Assembly (NCBI GenBank): GCA_014816185.1
Contig: GCA_014816185.1_4095.1
From: a phage
DNA length: 64,000 bases
Strand: one strand, 5' to 3'
Shown here: one piece after another, positions 39,456-57,175 of the stretch
Layout: every line of letters begins with the position of its first letter
Numbering within the stretch: position 1 is the stretch's first letter
Translations under genes and position numbers: made by a program
Notes under the pieces: model-generated
Told to the model about the DNA's origin: nothing
What the model saw: only the letters and a program-made list of their open reading frames with translations
The model's database searches: none

Positions 39456-39527
39456 TGTATCCTCCAAATGTAAATCGTTATTATATTTAGGACAAAAAAA
39501 TGCCAGTACAAGGCACTGGCATAAAAT

Positions 39528-40697
39528 CTAAGCAGAAGGCATATCCTTCATCTTAATAAATGAAAATTGTGTACCAGTATTTGTGGTTTGATCAGTAAAA
39601 TATGAATTACTACCAGCCCAGTACAATTCATTATTAACTATACAATATATAACAGAACTCGAACTCTGTGAATACACACGACTTATATTTGATGGTTCTA
39701 CTCCAGTACTGAACTGAACCGAACCCAACTGTGAACTTGGTATCACATCAGTTGGTCTACCTAAACCATTAACACCAGCCCCACCACCACATGTATATAT
39801 CCCAGTACTATCAGTTGATATATTAACATAACCATTTCCAGCATTTTCAAATAGTATTTCACTGGGAACAACACCAAATCCTGTAAGATCTATTTTCCTG
39901 AATGTAGTATAAACCGTAGAACCGCCAACACCTCTTCCACCATAATCATTAGAACCAGCCATATAGATACTATATCCAGAACTTCCTAAACATAATAACT
40001 GTACGTTGTCATATAATATTTGCATAGATATAACGTTATCAGGAATACTCAATACCGTAAAAGTAGTTAAAGAAGAACTTCCAATATTACTACCAACCGA
40101 TGTTCCACATCTGTAGTACTTACCGCCCTTTATATAATGGAATGATGAACCACCTAATTTATGTGCTCCTATTGCACTTACCTCAGTATCTATGAGAATG
40201 GGAGATACAACTTTGTTATTAACACCTAACTCAGATCTACTGTTCATACCGAACCCATATAAACGACCATCTAACATCAATATTAGTGTACTACCGGAAG
40301 TACCCGCTGACGTAAATTCTATATTCTTTATTTGCGACACGTCAATACCTACAAATAATGAAGTTACTTCAGTCCAGTTAACATATGAACCACTAGCCCC
40401 AAAATATCCACCCATGTATAGACCTGCACAATATAATTTATTATCAACAGTCTTTATTAATGTACCGGATACACACGCCCAAAAATCATCAACTTCATAG
40501 GGTACATGTACCCAACCACCTAATACATCACTAGCATCCCCTGTACCTAATTTATAGTTCGAACCAGAACCACGCATGTACATATTCCCTGTACTATAAA
40601 GTAATCCGACATGTAATTGACTACCATCCAATTTCTTTATTTCAGGAAGAGTTGGTTTAATATTTCCGTACTTTAACATTCTTCCAAAAGGTAACAT
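39528..40697 (-). CDS. RCC1-like repeat protein, MLPF family
   Basis: Start set at conserved MLPFGRM (track ORF reads through the upstream cassette); AAGGAGG SD; GxNxxGQLG-type motifs. Confidence 0.7.
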   Translation of the reverse strand: MLPFGRMLKYGNIKPTLPEIKKLDGSQLHVGLLYSTGNMYMRGSGSNYKLGTGDASDVLGGWVHVPYEVDDFWACVSGTLIKTVDNKLYCAGLYMGGYFGASGSYVNWTEVTSLFVGIDVSQIKNIEFTSAGTSGSTLILMLDGRLYGFGMNSRSELGVNNKVVSPILIDTEVSAIGAHKLGGSSFHYIKGGKYYRCGTSVGSNIGSSSLTTFTVLSIPDNVISMQILYDNVQLLCLGSSGYSIYMAGSNDYGGRGVGGSTVYTTFRKIDLTGFGVVPSEILFENAGNGYVNISTDSTGIYTCGGGAGVNGLGRPTDVIPSSQLGSVQFSTGVEPSNISRVYSQSSSSVIYCIVNNELYWAGSNSYFTDQTTNTGTQFSFIKMKDMPSA

Positions 40698-40775
40698 AAT
40701 TCCTCCTTTATTCATTATACTATATTTAATACAAATAAGAAAGCCAGTACAAAGTACTGGCATAGTTTTATAGTA

Positions 40776-41885
40776 TTATTTCGGCATTGTAATTGCAGAC
40801 CATGAGTTCGTGGTAATAGGACCTGGTACATACAAAAAAGAACCACAAGCATAAATTTGATTATTACCATCAAATACTATACTAAAATGTGCACATGTGT
40901 ATAATGATGATTTTTCTGGGTTGTAATTATCTAAAGTTAGTGTATTGGTGAATCTACTCAAACCACCTCCCGAACCATTTCTACCAAATTCACCAGTACT
41001 GTATATCTTTCCTTCGGTTGTTGCGTACATATTAACATATGAAGTCGCACTTGATTTTGATATTTTATGTATCTTACTATCAATAGTAGTGGAGTTAAAT
41101 GCAAATGGATATACTTGTGTGTTCGTTGTAATACCGTTACCAAGTTGACCAATATACTGCCAACCTGCGTTGTATATATTGCTGGCTGAATAAGCAAGAG
41201 TACCAGTACTGTTACCACCAAATAGTTTAACACTTGTTAACCTGCTTACTAGTGTAGTATACTGTCCTGGACTTACGCCAAGTGAACCATACCCACTGCT
41301 CCCGCAACCGAGAAGTTCATTATTTGATGTTAATATTAATGTGTTATTCTGTGTACCCAATATATCAAGAACTGTATTAGCTCCGGTATTAATAACTGAA
41401 ACAAAAGTACTCTGAGCCGTGGAATACCCACCACCGAGTGAATAGTTACCATTCATGCCTCTACCATAAACAATCGAACCACTAGCATCAACGTAGTGCA
41501 TTGTATCTGCACCAATTGATATCATTTTAATATTAGATATATGTGGAAATGAAGAAGTAACATTCAAACCACCCAACGGAATCATAGTATTTCCTGTGCC
41601 TAATTGTGTGGTAACTCCATGCATTATGAATTCTTCACCCTTGAGATAAAGAATATTGTACGCCCCAGCCCATGCATCAGTAACACCTTCTGAAATTAAT
41701 ATCCAAGTATTTCTTGTTGCTGTATTTTCAACGTTTAACTGAAAATACGTATTAACCCCACAACCATAAAGTGAGCCATCACCATAGAGGACGTACAAAT
41801 TATCAAGACCGCACAGTACTTTCTTTATCTTTGGAGCTTCAGGTGCAATATTTCCGTACTTAATCATTCTAACAAAAGGTAACAT
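40776..41885 (-). CDS. RCC1-like repeat protein, MLPF family
   Basis: Start at MLPFVRM; motifs GVNTYFQLN and GWQYIGQLGNG. Confidence 0.7.
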   Translation of the reverse strand: MLPFVRMIKYGNIAPEAPKIKKVLCGLDNLYVLYGDGSLYGCGVNTYFQLNVENTATRNTWILISEGVTDAWAGAYNILYLKGEEFIMHGVTTQLGTGNTMIPLGGLNVTSSFPHISNIKMISIGADTMHYVDASGSIVYGRGMNGNYSLGGGYSTAQSTFVSVINTGANTVLDILGTQNNTLILTSNNELLGCGSSGYGSLGVSPGQYTTLVSRLTSVKLFGGNSTGTLAYSASNIYNAGWQYIGQLGNGITTNTQVYPFAFNSTTIDSKIHKISKSSATSYVNMYATTEGKIYSTGEFGRNGSGGGLSRFTNTLTLDNYNPEKSSLYTCAHFSIVFDGNNQIYACGSFLYVPGPITTNSWSAITMPK

Positions 41886-41956
41886 ATTTCCCTCCTTATT
41901 CATTATACTATATTTAATACAAATAAGAAAGCCAGTATCAAGTACTGGCCTATATT
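41886..41956 (-). promoter_or_regulatory. conserved terminator-promoter-SD cassette (representative)
   Basis: Minus-strand sense GCCAGTACTTGATACTGGC hairpin + TTTCTTATTTG, then ATATAGTATAATGAATAAGGAGGGAA + ATG; near-identical copies in 40698-40775, 42695-42765, 43909-43980, 45145-45216, 46405-46475, 47625-47695, 48836-48905, 51227-51297, degenerate at 39456-39527. Confidence 0.65.
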
Positions 41957-42694
41957 TTAGACTGAATTGTTAGGATAATATCTCCCACGTCCCCATATTA
42001 TTCGCACAGCACCACCACCAGCAGCCGTATAAGAAAAATTATCCCATATACTACCACCACCACCATACATCTTACCAGCACCACCACTACCAGCACCACC
42101 ATTATATGAACCATCGTATCTACCGCCAATACCATTAGCACCTTGAACAATGATACCAGTACCACCACCCGTACCAATGAACGAGGTATTATAGAATGCA
42201 CCACCACCACCGCCGCCCCCAGCACCATTTTCACCAGTGATTGCATCTCCGTTACCACCTTTACCAGTGTAGCCACCAGCACCACCACCAATGACTGCAC
42301 CACCACTTACACCAGCGTTGCCCCCATTACCACCACCATCATTAATAGCGTTAGCAGCTTTCCCACCTAGTCCACCAACCCTATATTCACCAGTGAAGCT
42401 AACACATAGTTTTTCAGTTCCACGATATAAACCGTTTTCAACTGGTGTAGTAGTGTTGGGATGTGTAAGAGAAACACTTAAGTACTCACCACTAGTAACC
42501 GGAATATTATTACGCCACGATAAGCCGCCACCAGCACCACGTTGACCACCCGGCGAAATAACACATACTGATATTTCGGTAACGCCAGCAGGAACTGTAA
42601 ATTGTGTTGTTCCTATTGTCGTGATTAATTGTTCACCATGTGGCTTATATTCAATTTTATTCCCGTACTTAACCATTCTTCCAAAAGGTAACAT
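41957..42694 (-). CDS. Gly-rich protein with MLPF N-terminus
   Basis: N-terminus MLPFGRMVKYGN; body is Gly-rich low complexity rather than RCC1 repeats. Confidence 0.65.
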   Translation of the reverse strand: MLPFGRMVKYGNKIEYKPHGEQLITTIGTTQFTVPAGVTEISVCVISPGGQRGAGGGLSWRNNIPVTSGEYLSVSLTHPNTTTPVENGLYRGTEKLCVSFTGEYRVGGLGGKAANAINDGGGNGGNAGVSGGAVIGGGAGGYTGKGGNGDAITGENGAGGGGGGGAFYNTSFIGTGGGTGIIVQGANGIGGRYDGSYNGGAGSGGAGKMYGGGGSIWDNFSYTAAGGGAVRIIWGRGRYYPNNSV

Positions 42695-42765
42695 AATTCC
42701 CCTCCTTATTCATTATACTATATTTAATACAAATAAGAAAGCCAGTATCAAGTACTGGCGTAATG

Positions 42766-43908
42766 TCAATAAGTATCCCAAGGTAATGGTGTCTTCCTAA
42801 ATCCATACCTGGTTGTGCTCGCACCATCACCAGCAATGTATCTACCTATACCACATTGGTATAACTCTGTACTACTACATATAGCACCACCTATAGTACC
42901 ACTACTCCACTGAATTATATTAGAATATGTTATTGGTAAATCACTACATTTAGTATATACAGCAACGGTAGAAGCACCACTAATACCACCAAACATACTT
43001 CGGTTAGCACCAGTGTAATATATACCATCTGGACTCATAAATGCAGAGGTGTAAGTTGTACTGCAATCCACTGGACTTCTTATTGTATTAAGATCGCCTG
43101 GGTATGTCCTGACACCAAAGGTGTATACATTACCATCAGTTGTAATACCATTACCTAACTGCCCACTGCTTTGTCCACCACATGTAAGCAACAATGCAGA
43201 ACCAGAAACAATTGCAGTAGCATTATACGAAGTACCCATTGCAATAGAAGCACCAGACAATAGTTTTGGTGTAACGATAGCTGTTGTATTACCCTGGCCT
43301 AATTCACCATTTGTGTTTCGTCCCCATGCGTATATAGAAGTTGTATCCAAGCGACATAGTACTGAACCATAACTAAACGTATATCGCATGTCATTTACAG
43401 CAGAAGGCAAATTAACCTTAGTTGCAACACTAATAACACCGCCAGTAACACCACTGTTTGCGTTCATGTTACGACCATATGCATATAAAGAACCATCTGA
43501 AGTTTTAATATGCATCATACCATCTGTGCAATATAATGCATCGATGCTATCCACCGCAACCGGACCCATACTGGCAGTTATATCGGTCCACCCAAGAGTA
43601 GTAGTACTAGAAATTAAGTTATTTCCTGCATATAGTATTCTATTATTATTAGTAACTACCACTGTATATCTAGCAGTAACTCCAATTAATCGAACATCAG
43701 TATATATCTTAGACCACGCACCTAGTGAATTTGTATTTGCATCCAAAAAGCCTAACTGCCCATCTGTATTGTATCCAATACCCCATGCATCACCTGCACT
43801 GTCCAATAACACTTCATGTGAAAAGCCAATCTTAAAATCTTTTATTGTAGGAACTACTGGAACTGGTGCTATATTCCCGTACTTAACCATTCTTGCAAAA
43901 GGTAACAT
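42766..43908 (-). CDS. RCC1-like repeat protein, MLPF family
   Basis: GYNTDGQLGF, GRNTNGELGQG, GGQSSGQLGNG. Confidence 0.75.
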   Translation of the reverse strand: MLPFARMVKYGNIAPVPVVPTIKDFKIGFSHEVLLDSAGDAWGIGYNTDGQLGFLDANTNSLGAWSKIYTDVRLIGVTARYTVVVTNNNRILYAGNNLISSTTTLGWTDITASMGPVAVDSIDALYCTDGMMHIKTSDGSLYAYGRNMNANSGVTGGVISVATKVNLPSAVNDMRYTFSYGSVLCRLDTTSIYAWGRNTNGELGQGNTTAIVTPKLLSGASIAMGTSYNATAIVSGSALLLTCGGQSSGQLGNGITTDGNVYTFGVRTYPGDLNTIRSPVDCSTTYTSAFMSPDGIYYTGANRSMFGGISGASTVAVYTKCSDLPITYSNIIQWSSGTIGGAICSSTELYQCGIGRYIAGDGASTTRYGFRKTPLPWDTY

Positions 43909-43980
43909 AATTCCCCTCCTTATTCATTATACTATATTTAATACAAATAAGAAAGCCAGTATCAAGTACTGGCATTCTTT

Positions 43981-45144
43981 TTAAAATGGTGAATCTATTA
44001 CAAATACTAAGCTATTAATACCACCATATGTGACATCAGCCCCAGTACTATATACAAAATTACCATCAGTTATATAAGTACGGTTATACCCACCTGACAT
44101 TTGTGATTTACTATAATCAAAACCATCAGGTACGATTGCTTTGGTATATACTAATGCGTTAGTAGATGTACCAACACCTAACATACCAGCTTGTGTTGAT
44201 TGGTTGTAGCCACAACAATATATACCATCTGTTGTAGCAATAACTTGGTTATAATATGAAGTATTATGGGCCATACTGAGTACATCACCTGGTGGCATTA
44301 GGGAAGCAGTTTGAACAGCAAATGCTCTTATATCAGTACTATTCACTCCATCTGCCTGTGCACCAAATCTTTTCGCCCCACCATTGGCAATTATGGTTTT
44401 TCCATTTGGATCAGTACCAATAGCCATCGCCATTGAATTGTTATTATTTACATAGTACTCGATATTAATTACACTCCTTAGACTCGTAGGAGCACTAGTG
44501 TATACTGTATATAGAGAAGTACCACTAGTGCTAATTGCATTGACACGGCCTGTATAGTATAACCAACCGTTAGCAGTAACATAACCATGCATTAGATTAC
44601 TTGCAAACAATTTAAATGGTAATTGGTCTTCTTCAGTAGAGACTGTGCTCTGGACGAATTTAGTATTAACGTTGTTAGTTGTTGTCCCATTACCTAACTG
44701 ACCTTCTGCCCCTGCCCCAGTACTCCATATTGTTCGATCTGAAAGTAATACACTTGTAGTCTGATTACTAACTGCCATATCTAATATTGGTAATGTTAAT
44801 GTATTGAATGTTGGCATAGCAGAAGTCCACACTGATACGGCTGCCCCTGTCATACCAACAGTAGTTGACGAACCACTGTACCATATTTCATTGTTGAATT
44901 TCTTAATAACCAAAGAAGTGGTACTTAACCAAAAATCTTCAACACCAGAAGTACTTAACGTCCATGTAGTAACGGTTTCTTTGTGACCTAAACCCAAAAG
45001 ACCATTTGAATTCTGACCACGTACATATAAATCCCCACTGCTTGTTAAAACTGCAACGTTGTAGTTATTGGCGAGTATTTTTTTAAATTTCGGTGGTGCT
45101 GGTGCTATATTCCCGTACTTAACCATTCTTGCAAAAGGTAACAT
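43981..45144 (-). CDS. RCC1-like repeat protein, MLPF family
   Basis: GQNSNGLLGLG, GAGAEGQLGNG; C-terminus LVFVIDSPF. Confidence 0.75.
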   Translation of the reverse strand: MLPFARMVKYGNIAPAPPKFKKILANNYNVAVLTSSGDLYVRGQNSNGLLGLGHKETVTTWTLSTSGVEDFWLSTTSLVIKKFNNEIWYSGSSTTVGMTGAAVSVWTSAMPTFNTLTLPILDMAVSNQTTSVLLSDRTIWSTGAGAEGQLGNGTTTNNVNTKFVQSTVSTEEDQLPFKLFASNLMHGYVTANGWLYYTGRVNAISTSGTSLYTVYTSAPTSLRSVINIEYYVNNNNSMAMAIGTDPNGKTIIANGGAKRFGAQADGVNSTDIRAFAVQTASLMPPGDVLSMAHNTSYYNQVIATTDGIYCCGYNQSTQAGMLGVGTSTNALVYTKAIVPDGFDYSKSQMSGGYNRTYITDGNFVYSTGADVTYGGINSLVFVIDSPF

Positions 45145-45216
45145 AATTCCCTCCTTTATTCATTATACTATATTTAATACAAAAAGAAAAGCCAGTACTG
45201 AGTACTGGCTATTATA

Positions 45217-46404
45217 TTATAATTGTCGGGGTGTATCTAGTACATATCTAGTTGTACTAGGACCACCATCATCATAAGTTCCGGTTGAATATATATTTTT
45301 CATATCAGTTAGAAATGTACGATATGAACCTCTATATATTTTTATTTTATCATACATAGAATATGTTATTTGTGTAGGCATTGGACATGCAGTAAACTTA
45401 CCAACAGTTGCACTAGTACCAATACCCAATGAACCAGCATAACTACTGGCATTTAAACCAGTTGCATATACACCAGTACTCGTAATTAGTATACTAGATT
45501 GTGGTGGGTATCCAGTATGAATTGAATACAAAGTACCGGGTGGTAACGTAGTACTGTTATTTCCTAAAACTCCATTAACAGAGCTAGATGTAGTGTTATT
45601 TCCCCATGCCCCATTATTAGCTAACCCACCGACAAGGAACTGACGTGCTCCTGTATTTGGATTTTCAACTAAAGCACTTACTGCACCAGTTGAGCATCCT
45701 GTGTATTGTAACGTTTTTGTGTATGTTGTACTTGGTTGATATAAAGTATATTCATTATATGAAGTCCATGTAGTCGCGGAACTTATACCGGATGTAACAC
45801 CACCAATATATAAATTATTTTGTTTATCAAACATCAATACACAGTTATTTGTTGACTGTATTTGTGCAATATCAACATTAGGTGTGACCGCTTTTACAAA
45901 TGAACCATCGGTTATTTCATAAGTAGTTCCCGTTCCATCGGCGAATTGTCTAGCACTGTTCCACCCTGTACTCCATATTGTATTATTATCCATTAATACC
46001 GTAAACCACGTAGTACCTCCATACATCTGTTTAATTGAAGTACTTGAACTTTGTGTGTACAAATTTTCAATATATTGGTTATAACTTAAAAACGTAGTAG
46101 TACTTGTTGGTAAACCAATATGAGAACCATATCCACAATAAAAATAATTTAAGTCATTGTCTTTTACTAATAAAGTTCCTTGTGTAAGCCAGCAATCGTT
46201 AACGTTTTCTCTAATTAATGTCCATGATTTTAATGCAGTGTTGTTTCCTCTACCGAATTTCCCAAAACTATTATTCCCACGTGCATATAGTTGACCATCC
46301 GTATACAGAACCACAACATCTAAATCAGTTGGGATTATTTTCTTAATTTGAAGTGGTACTGGGGCAATATTCCCATAATTCATCATTCTTGCAAAAGGTA
46401 ACAT
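45217..46404 (-). CDS. RCC1-like repeat protein, MLPF family
   Basis: N-terminus MLPFARMMNYGNIAP; repeat-rich Gly/Asn/Thr composition. Confidence 0.7.
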   Translation of the reverse strand: MLPFARMMNYGNIAPVPLQIKKIIPTDLDVVVLYTDGQLYARGNNSFGKFGRGNNTALKSWTLIRENVNDCWLTQGTLLVKDNDLNYFYCGYGSHIGLPTSTTTFLSYNQYIENLYTQSSSTSIKQMYGGTTWFTVLMDNNTIWSTGWNSARQFADGTGTTYEITDGSFVKAVTPNVDIAQIQSTNNCVLMFDKQNNLYIGGVTSGISSATTWTSYNEYTLYQPSTTYTKTLQYTGCSTGAVSALVENPNTGARQFLVGGLANNGAWGNNTTSSSVNGVLGNNSTTLPPGTLYSIHTGYPPQSSILITSTGVYATGLNASSYAGSLGIGTSATVGKFTACPMPTQITYSMYDKIKIYRGSYRTFLTDMKNIYSTGTYDDGGPSTTRYVLDTPRQL

Positions 46405-46475
46405 AAATTCCTCCTTTATTCATTATACTATATTTAATACAAATAAGAAAGCCAGTATCAAGTACTGGCATTAAA

Positions 46476-47624
46476 TCATTGTATAAATGACATATCAACT
46501 TCTGTATAACTAAGAATGTTTTGTCCAGCAATTCCCCCCATTACTACCATAGCATACCCACAATAATATAATTGCTCAGTGTCCGTAAGTATAAGTGAAC
46601 CAGATGGAGTGCGTACCAAATTACACGAACTATTAAACGAAGTATACGAAGGAGTATATGAGTACTGATTAATATTATTACCAACACCTAATTGACCAAA
46701 TCCATTCGACCCAGATGCGTATAGAACTTCATCACCTTTAGCTATATGTGATGCCATGTTACTAACACACGTATATAGAGTATAAACTCCTGAACTCAAT
46801 AATGTCGGAGTTTTGTATTGTATATCGGTAGATGAAGAAGTACCACCTGTGCCAAATTCGTTCCCGTATTGTGCACCGAACTGTTTACCACAAGCGTACA
46901 AATTATTATCCGATTTAATAAAAAATGTACTTTGATAACTTACATCAAAATCTATAACATCCGAAGCAATCATCGTCACCCCAGTAATAGAAGTTTGATT
47001 ACCTGTACCTAACTGATAGTAATAGTTAAAACCACAACCCCATAAAGTATTATCTTCTTTTAGGTATATGTTACCAACTGCCTTTTTAACCGAAGTTATA
47101 GTATCTACCCTTTTGAATGTGTTAAAAGAATTAATGTTTGTACCATCACCAAATGATGATAGGTTCGAGTTATTGTTAACTCCACAACAATACAACGTAC
47201 CATCGTTTGTTATCAAATTCACCTTCATATCATTAAAACTACTCATGTATTTTATATCAGAAACATTAATACCACCTGATGTTATCCACGTAGTACAGTC
47301 CGTCCACAAAGTTTTTGTATCAGTTACACCAGTGAATGCCTTCGTGTTACCAGTGATAAAAACTTTTCCAGTACCTTTCTCTTCATACAATTGACAACTA
47401 CTACTGTTATCTTCCAATAGAACTCGTTTAACATTCTCCGCACAAAGAATAAATTTACTCGATGCTACACCTGTACCAGTACCCCAATTCGTCGCAGAAG
47501 ATGCATACAACTTATTAGTATAAGTATCATGAAGATACATAGAATCACTTGAATATATTTTAAAACGCCTATCCTTACCAGGGGCAATATTCCCATAATT
47601 CATCATTCTTACAAAAGGTAACAT
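46476..47624 (-). CDS. RCC1-like repeat protein, MLPF family
   Basis: GFNYYYQLGTG, GSNGFGQLGVG. Confidence 0.75.
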   Translation of the reverse strand: MLPFVRMMNYGNIAPGKDRRFKIYSSDSMYLHDTYTNKLYASSATNWGTGTGVASSKFILCAENVKRVLLEDNSSSCQLYEEKGTGKVFITGNTKAFTGVTDTKTLWTDCTTWITSGGINVSDIKYMSSFNDMKVNLITNDGTLYCCGVNNNSNLSSFGDGTNINSFNTFKRVDTITSVKKAVGNIYLKEDNTLWGCGFNYYYQLGTGNQTSITGVTMIASDVIDFDVSYQSTFFIKSDNNLYACGKQFGAQYGNEFGTGGTSSSTDIQYKTPTLLSSGVYTLYTCVSNMASHIAKGDEVLYASGSNGFGQLGVGNNINQYSYTPSYTSFNSSCNLVRTPSGSLILTDTEQLYYCGYAMVVMGGIAGQNILSYTEVDMSFIQ

Positions 47625-47695
47625 ATTTCCCTCCTTTATTCATTATACTATATTTAATACAAATAAGAAAGCCAGTACAGTGTACTGGCATTATA

Positions 47696-48835
47696 TTATT
47701 TCCACGGTAGAAGTGAATCAGGAACCCTTGTTGGTACAGTAGTTGAAGACATTCCAGTAAGATTGGGTACACCACATGTGTATAAATTATTATATTCGTC
47801 AACTAACATCGTATAAGAATAGCTCTTACAAAAACTACTAAGATTACTACCTTCTAATGCAGTAAGATCCATTTCAGCGAATGATGTTATATACATATCA
47901 GTTGTACCAATACCACATTGACCATTTGAATTAAGGCCACATGAAAATAACTTATTATTATTATTAATTATACAGGATGGTCCGGTAAGGTTTGTCCCAA
48001 GCTCACCCACCAACTCCACTTCTCCTTGGAATGATAAATTTGGAATTAATGTACTCATTGGGGCTACTGACCTATTTCCTGTACCTGCTTGTCCATAGTC
48101 GTTAATAGATGCAACTTTAACATTACCATCATTAAGAAATATATAAGAAGTTTCATTTGTATTGACTGCTTTAATTGCATTACTAATCGAAGTATCTTGT
48201 GTAAATGTGAGCAAGTTTTGTGTCGTCGTTCCTGATACAAACGTTCTACCTGCATACCAATATGAACCATCATTTAGTACTAATCCAGTACTATATATTG
48301 CACAACCAGCACTGATAACATTTTCTATTGTACTATAGGTGAATCGTGAAACGCTTGAAGTTGATCCATTCCCAAAAACACCACCAGTACCAGCACCACA
48401 GTAGAACCACTTTCCATTTTTTAAAAATACACGCATACACGAAGATATCACAACACTATCAATATCATCTGCACTGACACCGAAATCAGTAAAGTTCTGT
48501 GTTATATCAACCCAAACGCCGTTAGTGTTTGAAGATAGTATTGGAATAACAGTACGTCTACCAGTGTACCAAATAGTACCATCTTTCTTTATAGCAATTG
48601 TTCCTTGTACCCCACCCCAATATCGTGTAACATTTGAGTTGACAAGAGTCCATTCAGTTGAAGAGTCCAATGAACCATTACCACTTTGTCCATATGCTGA
48701 AGAACCAAACCAATATAGATTGCCATTTGTGTGTAAATAAAATTTGGCATCAGCAGAACATTGTAACCTGTTTTTAGGTAGAATCAGTTCAGGTGCGATA
48801 TTCCCGTACTTAACCATTCTTGCAAAAGGTAACAT
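47696..48835 (-). CDS. RCC1-like repeat protein, MLPF family
   Basis: Start set at MLPFARM (track ORF extends into cassette); GLNSNGQCGIG. Confidence 0.7.
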   Translation of the reverse strand: MLPFARMVKYGNIAPELILPKNRLQCSADAKFYLHTNGNLYWFGSSAYGQSGNGSLDSSTEWTLVNSNVTRYWGGVQGTIAIKKDGTIWYTGRRTVIPILSSNTNGVWVDITQNFTDFGVSADDIDSVVISSCMRVFLKNGKWFYCGAGTGGVFGNGSTSSVSRFTYSTIENVISAGCAIYSTGLVLNDGSYWYAGRTFVSGTTTQNLLTFTQDTSISNAIKAVNTNETSYIFLNDGNVKVASINDYGQAGTGNRSVAPMSTLIPNLSFQGEVELVGELGTNLTGPSCIINNNNKLFSCGLNSNGQCGIGTTDMYITSFAEMDLTALEGSNLSSFCKSYSYTMLVDEYNNLYTCGVPNLTGMSSTTVPTRVPDSLLPWK

Positions 48836-48905
48836 ATTCCCTCCTTTATTTGTTATACTATATTTAATACAAATAAGAAAGCCAGTACTCTGTACTGGCA
48901 TTATG

Positions 48906-50015
48906 TTATTTTGGTAAATCAATTTTAGTAAAGACTGCAACATCCTCGATTGCACCTGGAATGGCGTAATACGATCCAGTACTATACACATCTCCATTTT
49001 TGGTTAATATCGATGTCAAACCATCACTAAAAAGAACATCCCTAATCTCACTAACTTCAACGGGTAATTGTAAATTGGTAGCACTATATATAGCACCAGT
49101 TTGAGAATTGTTTAATCCCAAACCACGGTTCGCCCCAACACCCTTCTGATATGTACTAGTAATTACCATTTGTGTAGCAGTATTTAAGGCAGGTGAATTC
49201 GTCATAAACAACGGAGAACTATTAGGCAAAGTACTTAAAGGAACTGCACGGAATGTAGTCGTACCTGAACTAAGAAAGTTTGGAGTTTGACCACATACGA
49301 AATATGATGTACCATTATAGTAATTTAATGCATTACCACCAATGGCTGCATCGATTACACCAGAACTACGCAATCCCCAAGTGTTAATTTGTGTTTGGTT
49401 CCCCGTACCATGCTGCCCACTACTATTCCATCCAGAACTATATAGCTTATTATCTAATGTAAGATACATACTATCATTCGCATTGGTCATTACTTTACGA
49501 ACGTTCGTAGCACATTGAGTTAATGTGTAAATTGATGATGAACCAATACCCAAAGAACCACGATATCCATTATCTCCTGCACCATAGAGTACTGAATTAG
49601 TGCTAAGTACAAATATTAAACCATTTGTACATACAATATTAGCAATTTCACTTACTGGTATAGCATTGGTAAACCAATTAGTTCTTTCAACTAATACAGT
49701 ACTGTAAGAAGTAGTTGTAGAAGATGAGAACCAGTACGTTTGACCTGATGTCCATATCGTATTATCATTTTTAATAATAACAAGTGTACGATCACCCACG
49801 AAAAAATTAGAAACATCTGCACTTACTAATGTCCACGAAGACACCGTGTTGGTATTACCATTTCCAGATTCACCACCTTGATTTCTACCTATGTAATATA
49901 AATCATGTGAATCAGTCAATAAGAATTGGCCTTGGGTAGAAGCACCAACTTTAATTATTTTTTTAGGACCAGGGACAATATTTCCATACATAATCATTCT
50001 TCCAAAAGGTAACAT
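48906..50015 (-). CDS. RCC1-like repeat protein, MLPF family
   Basis: Start at MLPFGRM; GWNSSGQHGTG; only 8 nt from upstream gene stop, no cassette. Confidence 0.7.
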   Translation of the reverse strand: MLPFGRMIMYGNIVPGPKKIIKVGASTQGQFLLTDSHDLYYIGRNQGGESGNGNTNTVSSWTLVSADVSNFFVGDRTLVIIKNDNTIWTSGQTYWFSSSTTTSYSTVLVERTNWFTNAIPVSEIANIVCTNGLIFVLSTNSVLYGAGDNGYRGSLGIGSSSIYTLTQCATNVRKVMTNANDSMYLTLDNKLYSSGWNSSGQHGTGNQTQINTWGLRSSGVIDAAIGGNALNYYNGTSYFVCGQTPNFLSSGTTTFRAVPLSTLPNSSPLFMTNSPALNTATQMVITSTYQKGVGANRGLGLNNSQTGAIYSATNLQLPVEVSEIRDVLFSDGLTSILTKNGDVYSTGSYYAIPGAIEDVAVFTKIDLPK

Positions 50016-50023
50016 ATTCCCTC

Positions 50024-51226
50024 CTATTGTTGCCATAACTGCGATGGCATTAATGTTAGTGTAGTAATACTATAAGTGCCATCTGGCAATCTACCACCAT
50101 TTCCATTCCAGCCACCACATGCATATAATTTATAATCTTTAGTAATTATTATGGTTCTGCTCCAATCTTTAGATGCCATAAGAACATTGTCATAACCACC
50201 ACTTATTGCACTAAGATTAAAAATATTCCAAGTTCTAACTAATGTATTAGTTCCATTACCTTCTTGACCATATGAGTTAGCACCACTACTTCTAACATAT
50301 GGTGCGTATTGTGCCATAGGTGCACCAATTGATGCATTTCCCATATTACTTGGACAAATAAAAGTACTGTACTTACTTACATCAACCGTGACCGATGTGT
50401 TCCTAATTGGTGTTAGCTGATTTACCGATGTAGTCGTACCATTACCAGCTTGTCCAGAACTGTTAGCCCCGCTATAATATACAGACCCACCAGTAGTAAA
50501 CCACCAAGTAACATCGTATGTAGTACTAATATGTTCTACATTACTAATCACGAATTTGTTCAAATATACAACAGAACTACCACCACATCCACTTTCACCA
50601 AAGTTATCCTTACCACAAAACCATGCATCTTTATTTGATTTGATATAGTGCGTTCCTTGTAATGAACATGCCATATGTGTAACTTCACCCATATTAGTCA
50701 TAACTGTGAGTGTAGGGATGGAATTTTTATTCCCAGAGCCACATTCACCATTAGTATTTCTTCCACACGCAATTACTCTACCATCGGTTAATAATATTCT
50801 AGTACTTTCACCTATATATACACTCTTGATCATATTAGCCATAACACCTATTTTATTAAATGCAACAGTAACATCAGTCCATGTTGTCAAATAACCATTA
50901 ACAGGTGTTGCATCTCCATAATCAGAAAATGCACCAACCGACCCAGTGTAGTATATTTTATTATCCAAATCAATCATCAATGAACCTTGAACACCAAGCC
51001 AAAAGGCTGCACAGTTCCTTGCAAGTACTGTAAATGACGAAACTGCTGCTGAATTCCCAAGACCAAATTGATAAAAGTTATTACTACCATAACCATATAA
51101 AGTATTAGTTGGGTTATGGAGATACATACAGTTTGTATAATGTTGTTGTAAAACATCTGAGAACTCTACAGGTTCTGGACCTGGTGCAATATTTGCGTAC
51201 TTAACCATTCTTCCAAAAGGTAACAT
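50024..51226 (-). CDS. RCC1-like repeat protein, MLPF family
   Basis: GSNNFYQFGLG, GRNTNGECGSG, GANSSGQAGNG, GANSYGQEGNG. Confidence 0.75.
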   Translation of the reverse strand: MLPFGRMVKYANIAPGPEPVEFSDVLQQHYTNCMYLHNPTNTLYGYGSNNFYQFGLGNSAAVSSFTVLARNCAAFWLGVQGSLMIDLDNKIYYTGSVGAFSDYGDATPVNGYLTTWTDVTVAFNKIGVMANMIKSVYIGESTRILLTDGRVIACGRNTNGECGSGNKNSIPTLTVMTNMGEVTHMACSLQGTHYIKSNKDAWFCGKDNFGESGCGGSSVVYLNKFVISNVEHISTTYDVTWWFTTGGSVYYSGANSSGQAGNGTTTSVNQLTPIRNTSVTVDVSKYSTFICPSNMGNASIGAPMAQYAPYVRSSGANSYGQEGNGTNTLVRTWNIFNLSAISGGYDNVLMASKDWSRTIIITKDYKLYACGGWNGNGGRLPDGTYSITTLTLMPSQLWQQ

Positions 51227-51297
51227 ATTTCCCTCCTTTATTCATTATACTATATTTAATACAAAAAGAAATGCCAGTATCAAGTACTGGCATAATA

Positions 51298-52476
51298 TTA
51301 TCGGTTAAATTTAAAATCTGTTATGTGTGTCCATGTATGATTTAATGGTGTACTCAATGGTGTAAAGCCAGCAGGGTCTGACCACGTTGAACCACATGCG
51401 TACATAAATTGATTGCCAGTACAATCCATTATAGCATAAGAACGTGTTGCTGTACCACATTTGAATCCAACTGCACTACTTGGGGTCGGTAATACTTCAA
51501 ATGTAGGTGCATTTGAAGTATTACCCCCATTTTTTGTTCCAGCTATGTACAGAACTCCATTAGTATCAATGATTAAGTTAGTCCAATATGCTTGTTCTCG
51601 ACCAGCATAAAAATATGTTAAATCACCGGGTACAAATGGTAACGTACCTTTATATAGTGTAGTATTAACATCCACTGGTGCTCCAGATACACCCCATGAA
51701 CTCATATAGTTTCTCCCACTTGCGTAGAATGTAGTTCCTTTACCGTAAAGTATTAATGATGCATGACTTGTTCGCATTGCATTATATTCAAACTCAGGAT
51801 CATCAGTAGCGTCCTTAAAAATCTGTGTCCATGTTGTTATATAGCCAGTAGTTGTAACACCCATTTGATAATAATAATTATCACCAGTAGCATAGAATTG
51901 TTTAGGGCCAGTTTGTACAATTGCATTCCTATTAGTTAACCAAAAATCTAATGTATTAGTCATGATCTTGGTGGGTGTGAAATTCGCCACGGTATTTCCT
52001 TTTCCGAAATAACCCTTAGCGTTATCTCCATGACCCCATAAATCACCATTAGTTGTGCGTAGGAATAATGTACCAGAATTGAATACAACTTTTTCTATAG
52101 TACTTATATCAATACCAACAGAAGTGTAATTCGTTGTAAAATCTTGAAAAGTACCCCAAAAATTAGATGAACCATTAAACATGACTTGACTACCAGTGTA
52201 CTTCACTTTATTATCTTTAGTGATAAGTAATGTCCCCCACGATGCCGCGAACATTAACTTAACATTTTCCATAACAAAGTATGGCTTACCGTATGCTGAC
52301 GCGGTAGAGTTCAAACCTAATAGTTGTCTATTATTACTACAACCCCATACTTCGCCGTTATCCAAAAGCATCAACATAGTAGGTTTACCAGATAATACAG
52401 ACAAAAAGAAATCTTTTGGTGTTGGTACACCAGGTGCAATATTCCCATAATCAAACATTCTAACAAAAGGTAACAT
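51298..52476 (-). CDS. RCC1-like repeat protein, MLPF family
   Basis: First gene of the array; MLPFVRMFDYGNIAP; divergent promoter region 52477-52579. Confidence 0.7.
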   Translation of the reverse strand: MLPFVRMFDYGNIAPGVPTPKDFFLSVLSGKPTMLMLLDNGEVWGCSNNRQLLGLNSTASAYGKPYFVMENVKLMFAASWGTLLITKDNKVKYTGSQVMFNGSSNFWGTFQDFTTNYTSVGIDISTIEKVVFNSGTLFLRTTNGDLWGHGDNAKGYFGKGNTVANFTPTKIMTNTLDFWLTNRNAIVQTGPKQFYATGDNYYYQMGVTTTGYITTWTQIFKDATDDPEFEYNAMRTSHASLILYGKGTTFYASGRNYMSSWGVSGAPVDVNTTLYKGTLPFVPGDLTYFYAGREQAYWTNLIIDTNGVLYIAGTKNGGNTSNAPTFEVLPTPSSAVGFKCGTATRSYAIMDCTGNQFMYACGSTWSDPAGFTPLSTPLNHTWTHITDFKFNR

Positions 52477-52579
52477 AATTCCCTCCTTTATTCATTATAT
52501 CATATTTACCTCCTAAAGAAAACCCTTGACACCCTTTCAGTACTGGTGTACTATAGAAGGAATATAAGGAGAACTGTAC

Positions 52580-52807
52580 ATGACAACTACACTTAAGTAC
52601 TACATTAATACTCTAAATGAACTAGAGTACGCGAAGTTTCTCGCGGATAGTTCGTGGCTAATTGAGCTAAAAACACATAACAGTACTGGATGTAACCTTA
52701 TGCTGAACAATGCACTTGATACCCTTGTAGTGAGTATTTTACACAGCAACATCTGCGGGAATAGCAATAAACAATTATCAAAAATCTTAGTACTGGTAGC
52801 TCTATGA
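52580..52807 (+). CDS. small protein, array member (divergent)
   Basis: AAGGAG SD; TTGACA-N17-TACTAT promoter upstream; KYYINTLNELEY N-terminal motif. Confidence 0.55.
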   Translation: MTTTLKYYINTLNELEYAKFLADSSWLIELKTHNSTGCNLMLNNALDTLVVSILHSNICGNSNKQLSKILVLVAL

Positions 52808-53016
52808 ACACTATGAACATTGAACAGTACTACATCGATGCACTACCAACAAAAGGTCTACGAGAAAGCCTACTGTATACACAAAATAATTATATAAACT
52901 TCAAACATTGTCCTAAACTCTTGAACTCGTACAGGAATAATAAAATAAGAAATGCTGTACAAGGGGTAGAAAGTATGCAATACTATTACATCCTAACCCT
53001 TTTAATCGAGCACTAA
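52804..53016 (+). CDS. small protein array paralog
   Basis: MNIEQYYIDALP; ATGA overlap. Confidence 0.55.
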   Translation: MNTMNIEQYYIDALPTKGLRESLLYTQNNYINFKHCPKLLNSYRNNKIRNAVQGVESMQYYYILTLLIEH

Positions 53017-53017
53017 T

Positions 53018-53203
53018 ATGTATAAAGAATTCTACTGTAGTAAGCTGCACAAACAATACAGAGATTCATTTCCAAATGAACCTATGGATATGAATAGTCC
53101 CTTTTATAAATTTGACTTCAGACTGGAGACACGTTATGCAATAGAACATCAATTTCCTGAAACTAAGTACTTATCTATCATGAACCTCATCTTTAAGTTC
53201 TAA
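53018..53203 (+). CDS. small protein array paralog
   Basis: MYKEFYCSKL. Confidence 0.55.
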   Translation: MYKEFYCSKLHKQYRDSFPNEPMDMNSPFYKFDFRLETRYAIEHQFPETKYLSIMNLIFKF

Positions 53204-53214
53204 AAGAGTACTAT

Positions 53215-53427
53215 ATGAAAACTATGAACATACACCAGTACTACTTAGATATTCTCCCTAAAGATGTACAGTTCATCCTTAAACAAGAATACAGTACTTT
53301 AAAAAACCTTAAAAGAACCGCACCGAATGTATTAATCCTGCACCAAGAAAATGTAGTTGATAATATTCTACAAGGTGTACCAGGGACCGAGTACTTTAAC
53401 ATAATAAGGCTAATTACATTACCATGA
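53215..53427 (+). CDS. small protein array paralog
   Basis: MNIHQYYLDILP. Confidence 0.55.
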   Translation: MKTMNIHQYYLDILPKDVQFILKQEYSTLKNLKRTAPNVLILHQENVVDNILQGVPGTEYFNIIRLITLP

Positions 53428-53609
53428 ATCATATATTATACTATTACCAAAATCTATCCGACAGGGACAAGTACACCCACAACTCCAATGTATGGTACTA
53501 CAAACGCGGTAGTATAAGAGACAAACAACATTACTTCTGTATTGCTATAAAAGAAGCACTAACAACTAAGTACACGTACAGAGCAGTACTGAAACTTATT
53601 GATATGTAA
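53424..53609 (+). CDS. small protein array paralog
   Basis: ATGA overlap; C-terminus YRAVLKLIDM. Confidence 0.55.
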   Translation: MNHILYYYQNLSDRDKYTHNSNVWYYKRGSIRDKQHYFCIAIKEALTTKYTYRAVLKLIDM

Positions 53610-53619
53610 AGAGAATACT

Positions 53620-53802
53620 ATGAGCATTGAATTGTACTTAAGTAAATTACAGCCTGGCGATAGATTCATCTACAATAAGTTCGAATTCAACTACAAGAAC
53701 GGGAGCAACAAATATCGTCGAGGATACCTATATACAAGCACAAGAGATGCACAAAACGAAAAGTACACATACAGAGAAGTACTTAAACTAATCTCTATTT
53801 GA
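53620..53802 (+). CDS. small protein array paralog
   Basis: Start moved to MSIELYLSKL; C-terminus YREVLKLISI. Confidence 0.5.
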   Translation: MSIELYLSKLQPGDRFIYNKFEFNYKNGSNKYRRGYLYTSTRDAQNEKYTYREVLKLISI

Positions 53803-53810
53803 GGTAATAT

Positions 53811-53996
53811 ATGAATACATTTGAGTACTATACCAATAAACTATCTATGCCTGAAAGATCTCATCTCTATGTGTGGAGAAATGCGTATAAAAGCGGCAAT
53901 AAACTTATACAAAGAAATTCCCTTACAGTGTGTACAAATTTAATTAAAGCAGAGTACCGCACATATATTGAAGTACTCAAACTGATAGCAATATAA
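53811..53996 (+). CDS. small protein array paralog
   Basis: MNTFEYYTNKL; C-terminus YIEVLKLIAI. Confidence 0.55.
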   Translation: MNTFEYYTNKLSMPERSHLYVWRNAYKSGNKLIQRNSLTVCTNLIKAEYRTYIEVLKLIAI

Positions 53997-54004
53997 GGTA
54001 CTCT

Positions 54005-54184
54005 ATGCAAGAATTCTATATCTATAACCTCCAGCACAAAGATAGATACAACTATAATAAATTCCAAAGGTACTACACAGTCGGGAACAAAAGAGATAAA
54101 AAACGTTATCTACTCTCGTGTACAGTAGAAGCACAAAACGAAAAGTACACGTACAGAGAAGTACTTAAACTAATCTCAATCTAA
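54005..54184 (+). CDS. small protein array paralog (59 aa)
   Basis: Missed by ORF track; MQEFYIYNL...EKYTYREVLKLISI with AAGG SD. Confidence 0.5.
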   Translation: MQEFYIYNLQHKDRYNYNKFQRYYTVGNKRDKKRYLLSCTVEAQNEKYTYREVLKLISI

Positions 54185-54191
54185 GGTAGAC

Positions 54192-54380
54192 ATGAACACT
54201 TTTGAGTACTACTTCAATAAACTAAACCACATAGAACAAAGTATGCACAACTCATTTATTCAGCACCATCAATCATCTGCACATGGAATTAAAAATATAT
54301 CGATTGAGATTATCACTACCCGTGTACTGTCATCTGAACGTTATATGTATATTGATGTACTGAAACTCATCTCTATGTAA
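54192..54380 (+). CDS. small protein array paralog
   Basis: MNTFEYYFNKL; C-terminus YIDVLKLISM. Confidence 0.55.
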   Translation: MNTFEYYFNKLNHIEQSMHNSFIQHHQSSAHGIKNISIEIITTRVLSSERYMYIDVLKLISM

Positions 54381-54388
54381 GGAATAAT

Positions 54389-54568
54389 ATGCAAGAATAC
54401 TATATAGAACACATAAGCATTAAAGACCGTTTCATGTACGACACCTTCGTGAAGTACTACAACCTGGCAACTAATAGTACTAAAAATATTAATCTCAATA
54501 GCTGCATTCATCACGCACTAACAAAAGATAATCCCTTCAGGGAAATCCTCGCTCTCGCATCTGTATAA
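54389..54568 (+). CDS. small protein array paralog (59 aa)
   Basis: Missed by ORF track; MQEYYIEHIS...LNSCIHHAL... with AAGGAA SD. Confidence 0.5.
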   Translation: MQEYYIEHISIKDRFMYDTFVKYYNLATNSTKNINLNSCIHHALTKDNPFREILALASV

Positions 54569-54578
54569 AGGAAACCAA

Positions 54579-55238
54579 ATGAAACTTAATGCACACAGCA
54601 AACAATACCTTAAGCACTTTAAGTACCTCAACAGTATTCAAGCAGAATCTATTACATCTGCATATACGTATCACCCAAATGTACTAAAGAAACGAAATAA
54701 AAAGAAAAAATCCAGAAATGTTCTCGTATCTAAGAACCTCAAATCGTACTTGAAGAAAAATAATATAGCTCTTGCTTTTATTAATATCTATAATACTGAT
54801 TTAAAAGTATTGAGTACTAATACCAGCACAAAAGCACTAAAGAATGCATCTATCTATATACACATGGATAATATCCCGTGCACTATAATTCTATCTTTCG
54901 GGAATGTATACTTCTTCGGGAATTGTAATAGCACCCATGATATCAGTACTGCACAATTCCAAATCGGCGATATGTACTGCATGGGTTCAGAAAAAATACA
55001 CGATAACATGCACTTCTTCCAAAAGCAACGTACTAACGAAACTGATACAGTACTGCAATTCCTAAAAGAACTACAAAACAAAGAATTAACACCAGAAGAA
55101 GAATTCATGTACAGTACTGTAATCGATAATCCAGAACTCTATAAAAACGCGTACAATCTAACAAAACATGTACAGGAACTTATCAGTACTGATAAGAAAT
55201 TTCATCACCTCATTACGTATATTTCAAACTATGTATAA
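54579..55238 (+). CDS. hypothetical protein (219 aa) embedded in small-ORF array
   Basis: Longer ORF with Lys-rich segment; not obviously a family member. Confidence 0.55.
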   Translation: MKLNAHSKQYLKHFKYLNSIQAESITSAYTYHPNVLKKRNKKKKSRNVLVSKNLKSYLKKNNIALAFINIYNTDLKVLSTNTSTKALKNASIYIHMDNIPCTIILSFGNVYFFGNCNSTHDISTAQFQIGDMYCMGSEKIHDNMHFFQKQRTNETDTVLQFLKELQNKELTPEEEFMYSTVIDNPELYKNAYNLTKHVQELISTDKKFHHLITYISNYV

Positions 55239-55404
55239 AGAATTCTACCTCTCGTACCTTAATTCCGATATAGTAACATCCAATACCTTCAGTACTAAAA
55301 TTATCTATAATGAAGTAATGAAAGAATGTATTAAAGGTGCTATTAACCCTAAAGATACGTATGACTTGTACTATGCAGTACTAACCCTTGTTTTCACGAA
55401 ATAA
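55231..55404 (+). CDS. small protein array paralog
   Basis: Start moved to MYKEFYLSYL, overlapping upstream stop. Confidence 0.5.
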   Translation: MYKEFYLSYLNSDIVTSNTFSTKIIYNEVMKECIKGAINPKDTYDLYYAVLTLVFTK

Positions 55405-55412
55405 CACATAAT

Positions 55413-55604
55413 ATGAATAACCACAAAGAATACTACATAGAGAAACTCCCAATGTATCTCCAACACCTTGTACCAACAGAACCATTGCGTATAGAAAAAG
55501 ACTACGAAAAAGACTACTTCGTTAAGTGCACTAAATCCTCGATAGATATTGAGGACTATAATCGAGTACTGTATCACATCCTTTTACTAATATATAAGTA
55601 CTAA
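55413..55604 (+). CDS. small protein array paralog
   Basis: MNNHKEYYIEKLP. Confidence 0.55.
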   Translation: MNNHKEYYIEKLPMYLQHLVPTEPLRIEKDYEKDYFVKCTKSSIDIEDYNRVLYHILLLIYKY

Positions 55605-55605
55605 T

Positions 55606-55794
55606 ATGAATAACCACAAAGAATACTACACACAATTTCTCCCCAGTATTTTTGAACACTACGCCAGATATAAAGTCCCTCTGGATAACGATTTGGCAGT
55701 ACTGGGATTCAATAATTGCATAGAACGCAGTATAGAAAATAGTAGTAGCTATGACCAATTATATAACACTATCCTACTTATATTCAGGTACTAA
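55606..55794 (+). CDS. small protein array paralog
   Basis: MNNHKEYYTQFLP; FNNCIERSI. Confidence 0.55.
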   Translation: MNNHKEYYTQFLPSIFEHYARYKVPLDNDLAVLGFNNCIERSIENSSSYDQLYNTILLIFRY

Positions 55795-55795
55795 T

Positions 55796-55984
55796 ATGCA
55801 TAAAGAATACTACACAAAATATTTCCCAATGTACCTCAGTACTAATCTATTAGATAAACCTCGCGGTATCAATGCTCAAAACGATAAAGTGTACTTTACT
55901 ATGTGCACTAAAGCATGTATACTAGATTTTGATAGCTATCATCGAGTACTGTATCATACACTGTACCTAGCTTTCGTGTACTAA
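55796..55984 (+). CDS. small protein array paralog
   Basis: Start moved to MHKEYYTKYFP. Confidence 0.5.
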   Translation: MHKEYYTKYFPMYLSTNLLDKPRGINAQNDKVYFTMCTKACILDFDSYHRVLYHTLYLAFVY

Positions 55985-55994
55985 AGAGGCCAAT

Positions 55995-56382: not shown

Positions 56383-56383
56383 C

Positions 56384-56569: not shown

Positions 56570-56574
56570 CTAAT

Positions 56575-56959: not shown

Positions 56960-56972
56960 TAGAGATAATACT

Positions 56973-57164: not shown

Positions 57165-57175
57165 TAAGGTATACT

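Follow-up and report, generated by a model that had tools for sequence, protein, structure and literature searches.

The internal proteins IPI, IPII, and IPIII of phage T4 share an N-terminal capsid-targeting sequence (CTS) and are encoded at a polymorphic locus; the CTS sends them to the head interior and ends in a prohead-protease site after a Glu residue. In T4-type phages, each promoter-early stem-loop (PeSL) cassette packs a stop codon, stem-loop terminator, promoter, and Shine-Dalgarno sequence into a short intergenic stretch; copies recur in hyperplastic genome regions, and where they recombine, the genes that they flank are inserted, deleted, or replaced from one related phage to another (Arbiol et al. 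2010, PMC2839356; Comeau et al. 2014, PMC4122927). In modular adhesins and tail fibers, including Pam3 gp24 and S16/T4-type gp38, a conserved N-terminal attachment part is joined to a variable receptor-binding part (PMC9608196, PMC3157838). Here we describe an array of genes in a 64,000-nucleotide phage sequence (contig GCA_014816185.1_4095.1; hereafter the window), whose products share a 12-15-residue N-terminal tag and most of which are preceded by a repeated intergenic cassette. The array appears to combine PeSL-type shuffling with an N-terminal address label on modular virion proteins, and we think it probable that the tag is such a label and that the cassette repeats are recombination sites.

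The window matches, in patches only and for the most part with 80-99% identity, jumbo coliphages of the Asteriusvirus type (PBECO4, 121Q, SP27, phAPEC6, SHEFM2K, and others), and its sequence places its origin in a PBECO4/121Q/phAPEC6-like phage of this type. Within 39032-52476, 12 minus-strand open reading frames (ORFs) start with MLPF (ATG-TTA/CTA-CCx-TTT), and none does elsewhere in the 64 kb. The array comprises 11 intact genes (245-400 aa) and one decayed copy, all on the minus strand; the first-pass annotation of the window had stopped short of this twelfth, decayed member. All 11 intact genes open with MLPFxRMxKYGN(IAP), and 10 of the 11 have RCC1 and/or RCC1_2 matches above the Pfam gathering score (PF00415/PF13540/PF25390 class); the same search gave no RCC1 match for the remaining, glycine-rich member (41957-42694). 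The parts that follow the tag, which we call bodies, are lettered below by clustering tag-bearing genes from the window and five related genomes at 70% amino acid identity.

51298-52476, minus strand: member 1, body K, RCC1-like propeller, tag MLPFVRMFDYGNIAP
50024-51226, minus strand: member 2, body B, RCC1-like, tag MLPFGRMVKYANIAP, with its own cassette upstream
48906-50015, minus strand: member 3, body C, RCC1-like, tag MLPFGRMIMYGNIVP
47696-48835, minus strand: member 4, body H, RCC1-like, tag MLPFARMVKYGNIAP
46476-47624, minus strand: member 5, body I, RCC1-like, tag MLPFVRMMNYGNIAP
45217-46404, minus strand: member 6, body D, RCC1-like, tag MLPFARMMNYGNIAP
43981-45144, minus strand: member 7, body L, RCC1-like, first 45 nt identical to those of member 8
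42766-43908, minus strand: member 8, body A, RCC1-like, tag MLPFARMVKYGNIAP
41957-42694, minus strand: member 9, body E, 245 aa, glycine-rich and not RCC1-like, tag MLPFGRMVKYGN, same cassette
40776-41885, minus strand: member 10, body F, RCC1-like, tag MLPFVRMIKYGNIAP
39528-40697, minus strand: member 11, body G, RCC1-like, tag MLPFGRMLKYGNIKP
39032-39455, minus strand: member 12, internally deleted pseudogene, decayed tag MLPFRRIITSSKQN

The RCC1-like, or "DNA condensation protein," paralogs of Rak2-like phages (phAPEC6, 121Q, PBECO4, and GAP32 gp001) belong to the same gene family, which has already been published as multi-copy and virion-associated (PMC7247149, PMC5259590). We found no literature mention of a tag common to these proteins, of the cassette or of shuffling through it, or of members outside the RCC1 class, although coverage was incomplete and this is an absence of evidence only. 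The "chromosome condensation" label is a transfer of the Pfam family name and not a tested function; to our knowledge, the bacterial host has neither Ran nor a nucleosome.

Conservation among the array genes steps down sharply after the tag. Among the 10 RCC1-like paralogs, codons 1-15 have mean pairwise identities of 81% (amino acid) and 85% (nucleotide), every later 15-codon bin falls to 5-35% and 31-48%, respectively, and the gene bodies overall share ~20% amino acid and ~38% nucleotide identity. The first-pass annotation had described an identity peak at the 5′ ends, and this profile bears it out and excludes uniform divergence along the genes. Part of the signal lies in the DNA: where aligned residues are identical, their codons also agree in 77% of pairs within codons 1-15 vs 45% in the bodies, and codons 2-4 and 6 are invariant, even though CCT and AGA account for only 27% and 39% of the Pro and Arg codons of the bodies. 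This codon sharing, together with the invariant minority codons, points to concerted evolution of the DNA at the 5′ ends. Part of it lies in the peptide, as codons 10-15 in the window vary synonymously (TAT/TAC, GGG/GGA, ATT/ATC/ATA, GCA/GCC, and CCT/CCA) and the residues are kept. The conservation, as read from these codon patterns, thus acts at both the nucleotide and the protein level.

The tag is also found in more distant phages. Every array gene in Salmonella phage Munch and Klebsiella phage fENko-Kae01 starts with MIPF[ATSP][RK][IM]..YGN, and every array gene in Erwinia phage Kaldavass starts with MLPFP.[LMI]..YGN; in all three, the Pro, Phe, Arg, Gly, and Tyr codons of the tags vary freely, and many of the gene junctions, including every one in Kaldavass, lack a terminator-promoter cassette and are either overlapping or 9-12 nt long. 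Because the tag is kept across genera with synonymous changes, and often without the cassette, its sequences indicate that M-[LI]-P-F-x5-Y-G-N is under purifying selection as a peptide. A profile of the tag alone, built from the first 32 residues of the window's 11 genes, matched, at E<=0.001, 56 clusters (50% identity) drawn from 1.84 billion proteins; all but two match at residue 1 or just past an apparently mis-called start, and the two exceptions are internal and apparently spurious. A scan of IMG/VR with the tag-coding 21-mer recovered 121Q and a second jumbo-phage contig, its only other matches being three short ORFs that are unrelated and due to chance; the tag-gene search in the GenBank phage collection was far richer, and a word-indexed homolog search from one RCC1-like paralog gave only 17 matches. 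In the pseudogene, member 12, the tag has decayed. What is left at that locus is an ORF of 52 aa that carries the decayed tag and, after it and out of frame, an RCC1-like C-terminus; ~717 nt kept in SHEFM2K are absent from the window copy; the SHEFM2K counterpart, ~717 nt longer, is yet split into two ORFs.

The same tag is carried by unrelated bodies. These include the RCC1-like propellers and a glycine-rich protein (phrog_4474, homologs of which carry PF21722), and in Munch, fENko-Kae01, and metagenomic relatives the tag stands on a ~230-aa LamG-like protein (phrog_6011, "virion structural protein"). Tag-bearing bodies in Kaldavass include an RCC1+Kelch fusion and small proteins of 169-212 aa. 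The glycine-rich member of the window (41957-42694) has no Pfam match at E<=0.01, many of its homologs carry PF21722 (Gly_rich_2), and its Munch ortholog passes PF21722 narrowly (25.6 vs 24.3 bits). Outside the Rak2-like phages, members of the glycine-rich family have other N-termini (MLELL..., MIELMA..., and MFEMML...), and in an rV5-like contig the glycine-rich and LamG-like proteins both start with M[LN]EML..G instead of the tag; the LamG-like protein there is homologous to that of Munch, with an E-value of 1e-13 beyond the tag. The occurrence of the same bodies with a different N-terminal motif in an rV5-like phage implies that the tag is lineage-specific and separable from the body. In that contig (WCDA01000009.1), the two genes lie at 459-1109 (LamG-like) and 8001-8693 (glycine-rich) of locus L012, with MNEMLMLG and MLEMLTVG as their common motif, and the gene context of the glycine-rich homolog gave no sign of a tail-fiber cluster. 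These sequences hint that short lineage-specific N-terminal labels on these body types also occur in other phage groups.

Structure models place the tag outside the folded bodies. The AlphaFold model of 43981-45144 is a seven-bladed propeller (pLDDT 83, pTM 0.84), for which the top Foldseek matches in the PDB are UVR8, RPGR, RCC1, and HERC2 (E 1e-20 to 1e-15, TM 0.63-0.78); residues 1-10 have a pLDDT of 51, and the first strand begins at residue 20. In the model of the glycine-rich member, residues 1-18 have pLDDT <50 and the body >90, and the fold matches the solved TNF-like plus glycine-rich receptor-binding domain of tail fibers of the Pam3 gp24 type. This member has no N-terminal alpha-helical docking or trimerization domain, only the 18-residue low-confidence tag before the first strand. 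The putative docking part in the array differs from that of the modular adhesins in being 12-15 residues long and not a helical domain, and in being common to several unrelated folds within a tandem array.

The spacers between the genes are 70-78 nt long and, aligned from the stop codon to codon 15, have 77% mean column identity. On the coding strand, the cassette reads stop codon, hairpin GCCAGTA-N5-TACTGGC with a T-rich tail, TATTAAATATAGTATAAT, GAATAAAGGAGGGAAT, and ATG, which has the PeSL-type composite layout of a stop codon, a GC-rich 7-10-bp hairpin with a T-tract, TATTAAATATAGTATAAT, AAGGAGG, and ATG. The 18-mer TATTAAATATAGTATAAT occurs nine times, in the array only, where 1.08 occurrences are expected by chance, and the hairpin occurs 10 times in the array vs 0.1 expected; the sole hairpin outside the array is a copy with two mismatches at 6214. 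A 384-aa minus-strand ORF beside that similar hairpin (6240-7394) was considered as a further array member and rejected. The intergenic segments are as follows.

52477-52545, minus strand: region upstream of member 1, with promoter-like segment GGTAAATATGATATAATGAATAAAGGAGGGAATT and a Shine-Dalgarno sequence, without a canonical hairpin
51227-51297, minus strand: cassette with hairpin 51273-51291, promoter-like 18-mer 51244-51261, and Shine-Dalgarno sequence
50016-50023, minus strand: cassette-less 8-nt junction between bodies B and C, TAGGAGGGAAT-ATG
48836-48905, minus strand: cassette with hairpin 48881-48899 and 18-mer 48852-48869 (1 mismatch)
47625-47695, minus strand: cassette with hairpin 47671-47689 and 18-mer 47642-47659
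46405-46475, minus strand: cassette with hairpin 46451-46469 and 18-mer 46422-46439
45145-45216, minus strand: cassette with hairpin 45191-45209 and 18-mer 45162-45179
43909-43980, minus strand: cassette with hairpin 43955-43973 and 18-mer 43926-43943
42695-42765, minus strand: cassette with hairpin 42741-42759 and 18-mer 42712-42729
41886-41956, minus strand: cassette with hairpin 41931-41949 and 18-mer 41902-41919
40698-40775, minus strand: cassette of 78 nt with hairpin 40743-40761 and 18-mer 40714-40731
39456-39527, minus strand: degenerate cassette with hairpin 39502-39520 (1 mismatch) and a diverged promoter-like part

A consensus scan scored the array hairpins as terminator-like, and the lack of a canonical hairpin ahead of the first gene (start at 52476) fits a hairpin that serves the gene upstream of it. 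As a predicted terminator precedes each promoter-like element, each array gene is probably its own transcription unit. The promoter-like element contains a perfect TATAAT, with TTTCTT as the hexamer 17 nt upstream, and the consensus sigma-70 early promoter (-35 TTGACA, 17 nt, -10 TATAAT, and an AT-rich UP element) was not found in the cassettes; a sigma-70 scan gave a match in one cassette only (9/12), off the TATAAT hexamer, and promoter-like sites in the region do not exceed shuffle expectation. Overlapping the TATAAT is TAAATA, a partial match to ATAAATA, the late motif reported for this phage group (PMC5259590). The cassettes contain no exact copy of the T4 late promoter, TATAAATA, and so give no basis for a late-promoter assignment. 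Across the whole window, TATAAATA occurs only twice (24431 and 25080) vs 13.6 occurrences expected from shuffles, and this strong avoidance suggests that the motif is functional in this phage. The PeSLs carry consensus sigma-70 early promoters, with both -35 and -10, upstream of unrelated ORFans, whereas the array element has no recognizable -35. The array cassettes also differ from PeSLs in preceding virion (presumably late) genes instead of early ORFans, in being confined to one gene array in the window, and in forming part of a repeat that runs ~45 nt into the coding sequence and includes the peptide tag.

One junction in the array lacks the cassette. The first-pass annotation had reported two adjacent members without it; this holds for 48906-50015 (body C), which follows the 8-nt junction, but not for 50024-51226 (body B), which has a complete cassette at 51227-51297. 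The TAG that ends B overlaps the Shine-Dalgarno sequence of C within this junction, and for this reason B and C are probably co-transcribed. The same 8-nt junction is present in SP27, SHEFM2K, and EC22.5-2, whereas in phAPEC6 and 121Q body C has a full cassette and follows a different neighbor than in the window. Given that full cassette, the short junction looks derived. The recent duplication offered as one origin of this gene pair is contradicted by the divergence of the two proteins, which are at most 35% identical over 95 aa and ~24% elsewhere, and of the proposed events the deletion fares better: a deletion at the junction, or a recombination there, appears to be the better reading.

The array has been rearranged among related genomes. 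Across six genomes, the window included, we found 21 body types in differing orders and sets; the stretches from phAPEC6 and 121Q in this comparison are partial, and the body C of EC22.5-2, shown in parentheses, was missed by the start-pattern search and came to light through homology and inspection of the locus.

Window: K B C H I D L A E F G
phAPEC6: M C B L D E A N J F G
SP27: K B C H I D E A N J F G
SHEFM2K: O K B C H I D A J G
EC22.5-2: I O P Q R B (C) S T A E F G
121Q: M C H D E U A J F

Bodies are permuted (B C vs C B, and A E vs E A), L has moved, and whole units are gained or lost. The ends of the Megablast segments that align the window to each genome lie +35 to +50 nt into the following coding sequence and at approximately -65 to -75 nt, at the hairpin. 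Within one genome pair, identity varies from unit to unit between 73% and 99%, with successive units 99, 97, 86, 87, 87, 74, 97, and 83% identical to those of phAPEC6. The tags are decoupled from the bodies and are exchanged between them: body K is ~98% identical between SP27 and SHEFM2K, yet the first 45 nt are only 76% identical and the window body K has yet another variant of the tag; L and A, neighboring but unrelated bodies of the window, have identical first 45 nt; and body L of phAPEC6 bears the tag of its neighbor B. Because the orders and content differ, the breakpoints fall at the cassettes, and tags are exchanged, this comparison of genomes shows, at the level of sequence, that recombination at the cassettes reorders and replaces bodies. 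The suggestion that these homology blocks promote shuffling has thus been borne out in related isolates. A shared N-terminal signal had been proposed as the alternative to such a recombination handle, and the two roles turn out to be compatible and both supported; of the signal itself, a protein-level role is strongly indicated by the cross-genus conservation, the unrelated folds, and the low-confidence N-terminus, and its target is what we infer below.

Several members of the family are virion-associated. Bulk mass spectrometry (MS) of phAPEC6 virions detected gp003, 005, 006, 007, 009, 010, 549, and 551 (PMC7247149), which we mapped to annotated RCC1-repeat genes that make up eight of the 11 RCC1-like paralogs; each of these proteins gave few peptides, 1-5 vs nine for the portal (PMC7247149). 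GAP32 gp001 was likewise detected by MS (PMC5259590), and the glycine-rich tag protein of fENko-Kae01 is annotated in its record as identified by liquid chromatography-tandem MS (LC-MS/MS). In phAPEC6, the 244-aa glycine-rich tag-bearing gene (locus L001, 18259-18993) is unannotated, with only a 100-aa ORF, gp004, called there, and its product was therefore not detectable in the published virion proteome search. The phAPEC6 particle has hair-like fibers at three tail rings and on the capsid (PMC7247149). The virion MS, together with the lectin-like LamG, Kelch, and propeller heads, favors tag proteins that are external, adhesin-like, and attached through the tag.

We propose that the array is a hyperplastic set of virion-protein genes, each built on one plan: a terminator hairpin, promoter-like element, Shine-Dalgarno sequence, and 12-15-codon tag, followed by a variable ligand-binding body. 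The tag would act as a protein-level address label, and most likely docks unrelated heads to one common site on the particle; in the window, these heads are RCC1-like propellers and one TNF-like/glycine-rich tail-fiber-type domain, to which relatives add LamG-like and Kelch heads. The docking site is probably external, on the tail or the "hair" fibers, and the array would then supply a battery of interchangeable adhesins. In Asteriusvirus, the cassette and the tag-coding stretch together provide ~115-120 bp of near-identical DNA in 9-16 copies per genome, and the genome comparison shows homologous recombination and gene conversion between these copies reordering, inserting, deleting, and replacing whole bodies and homogenizing the tags. 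The putative docking role is well motivated. More tentatively, and with rather less confidence than in the joint reading of tag and cassette, we raise the possibility that the tag serves Rak2-like jumbo phages universally as a portable "plug," enough by itself to fasten any protein to a multivalent virion site dedicated to display, perhaps the hair-like fibers, and that the array is a self-shuffling adhesin library that sets host or niche range.

A different destination for the tag is the head. In phAPEC6, the particle contains an inner-body rod for which RCC1-like proteins were proposed by the authors, and these phages encode a T4-type prohead protease (PMC7247149). The tag could then work like the T4 CTS and send proteins into the prohead core or inner body, perhaps to be injected, for example with anti-defense or DNA-organizing roles. 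The parallel with the T4 internal-protein genes is a close one, with a short conserved N-terminal peptide on dissimilar virion-associated proteins, serving as an address label, at a plastic locus where conserved 5′ ends allow exchange of the variable bodies. Unlike the CTS, however, the array tag has no Glu cleavage site: no conserved Glu was found at tag positions 1-16, where E is only sporadic at 13, 15, or 16, and no (L/I)xE-type cleavage site follows the tag. Moreover, the bodies resemble external binding modules; exposed tail-fiber, brush, and spike domains share the fold of the glycine-rich member, the LamG-like, Kelch, and RCC1-like heads are typical surface-binding modules, and the phAPEC6 peptide counts lie below that of the portal. 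We regard a head-targeting role as unlikely.

If instead the first 45 nt were kept purely as DNA, as part of an expression or recombination cassette serving translation initiation or as a handle, the peptide would be functionless. The shared codons, the invariant codons 2-4 and 6, and the exchange of tags between bodies all agree with this; but Munch, fENko-Kae01, and Kaldavass keep the tag residues with free synonymous variation and without the cassette, codons 10-15 of the window vary synonymously only, and the tag decays in the pseudogene. These observations largely refute such an explanation, and we consider it very improbable. At least as doubtful is that the N-terminus is a buried propeller strand kept for folding, as in a "velcro" closure. 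Many propellers do close the ring with an N-terminal strand, and the tag is partly hydrophobic (LPF, M, and Y); the predicted first strand nonetheless begins only at residue 20, after residues modeled at low confidence, and the same tag stands on non-propeller folds and is disordered in the glycine-rich model. With the tag outside the confident core in both AlphaFold models, we reject a buried structural core, which would have undone the proposed signal, as far as these models can tell.

Several points weigh against the combination of docking tag and recombination sites that we prefer. Low confidence in a single-chain AlphaFold model is a weak sign of a docking peptide, and recombination at the conserved blocks may follow incidentally from their being conserved and not be a selected function. 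The promoter and terminator activities of the cassette are predictions, and the promoter-like element has no recognizable -35 and matches the late motif only in part (TAAATA vs ATAAATA). The authors of the phAPEC6 study suggested DNA condensation, an internal DNA-organizing role, or an inner-body role for the RCC1-like proteins (PMC7247149). Phage CBB has tail hairs, and its authors found no homolog of the RCC1-like GAP32 gp001 in the CBB genome (PMC5259590), so hairs do not need an RCC1-like protein. Finally, the particle site of the RCC1-like proteins and the partner of the tag are inferred.

The array is flanked by further repeated genes. Divergent from it, at 52580-57400 on the plus strand, is a tandem array of ~20 small paralogous ORFs (59-78 aa), which is likewise annotated in SP27 and SHEFM2K (several of these ORFs belong to phrog 11711). 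Convergent with it, at 36927-38346 on the plus strand, lie four small hydrophobic paralogs in tandem (104-141 aa); in Kaldavass, four genes annotated as "membrane protein" (locus L013, 10274-11698) occupy the same position relative to the tag array there, and the matching position implies that this synteny is conserved across genera. Two genes of 219-220 aa flanking the array were compared as possible paralogs of each other and rejected. The window also contains a single tRNA-Thr (TGT) gene at 837-910 on the plus strand.

The Sharanji paper does not mention the array genes, and the fEgEco12 paper notes only that two "chromosome condensation regulators" rank with the proteins that differ most from those of its close relative Ecwhy_1. 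The model proposed here would account for the array genes being where closely related Asteriusvirus phages used in phage therapy differ most. It would carry the PeSL idea of modular shuffling over to jumbo-phage virion genes, where the repeat covers both regulatory DNA and a functional coding tag, and it would offer a concrete candidate signal of 12-15 residues that could help to identify the make-up of the hairs or of the inner body. If the tag is indeed a portable plug, chosen proteins could be displayed on jumbo-phage particles by means of the 15-mer. For the family as a whole, a testable model of tag-addressed, recombination-shuffled binding modules of the virion would replace the misleading annotation of these genes as "DNA/chromosome condensation proteins."

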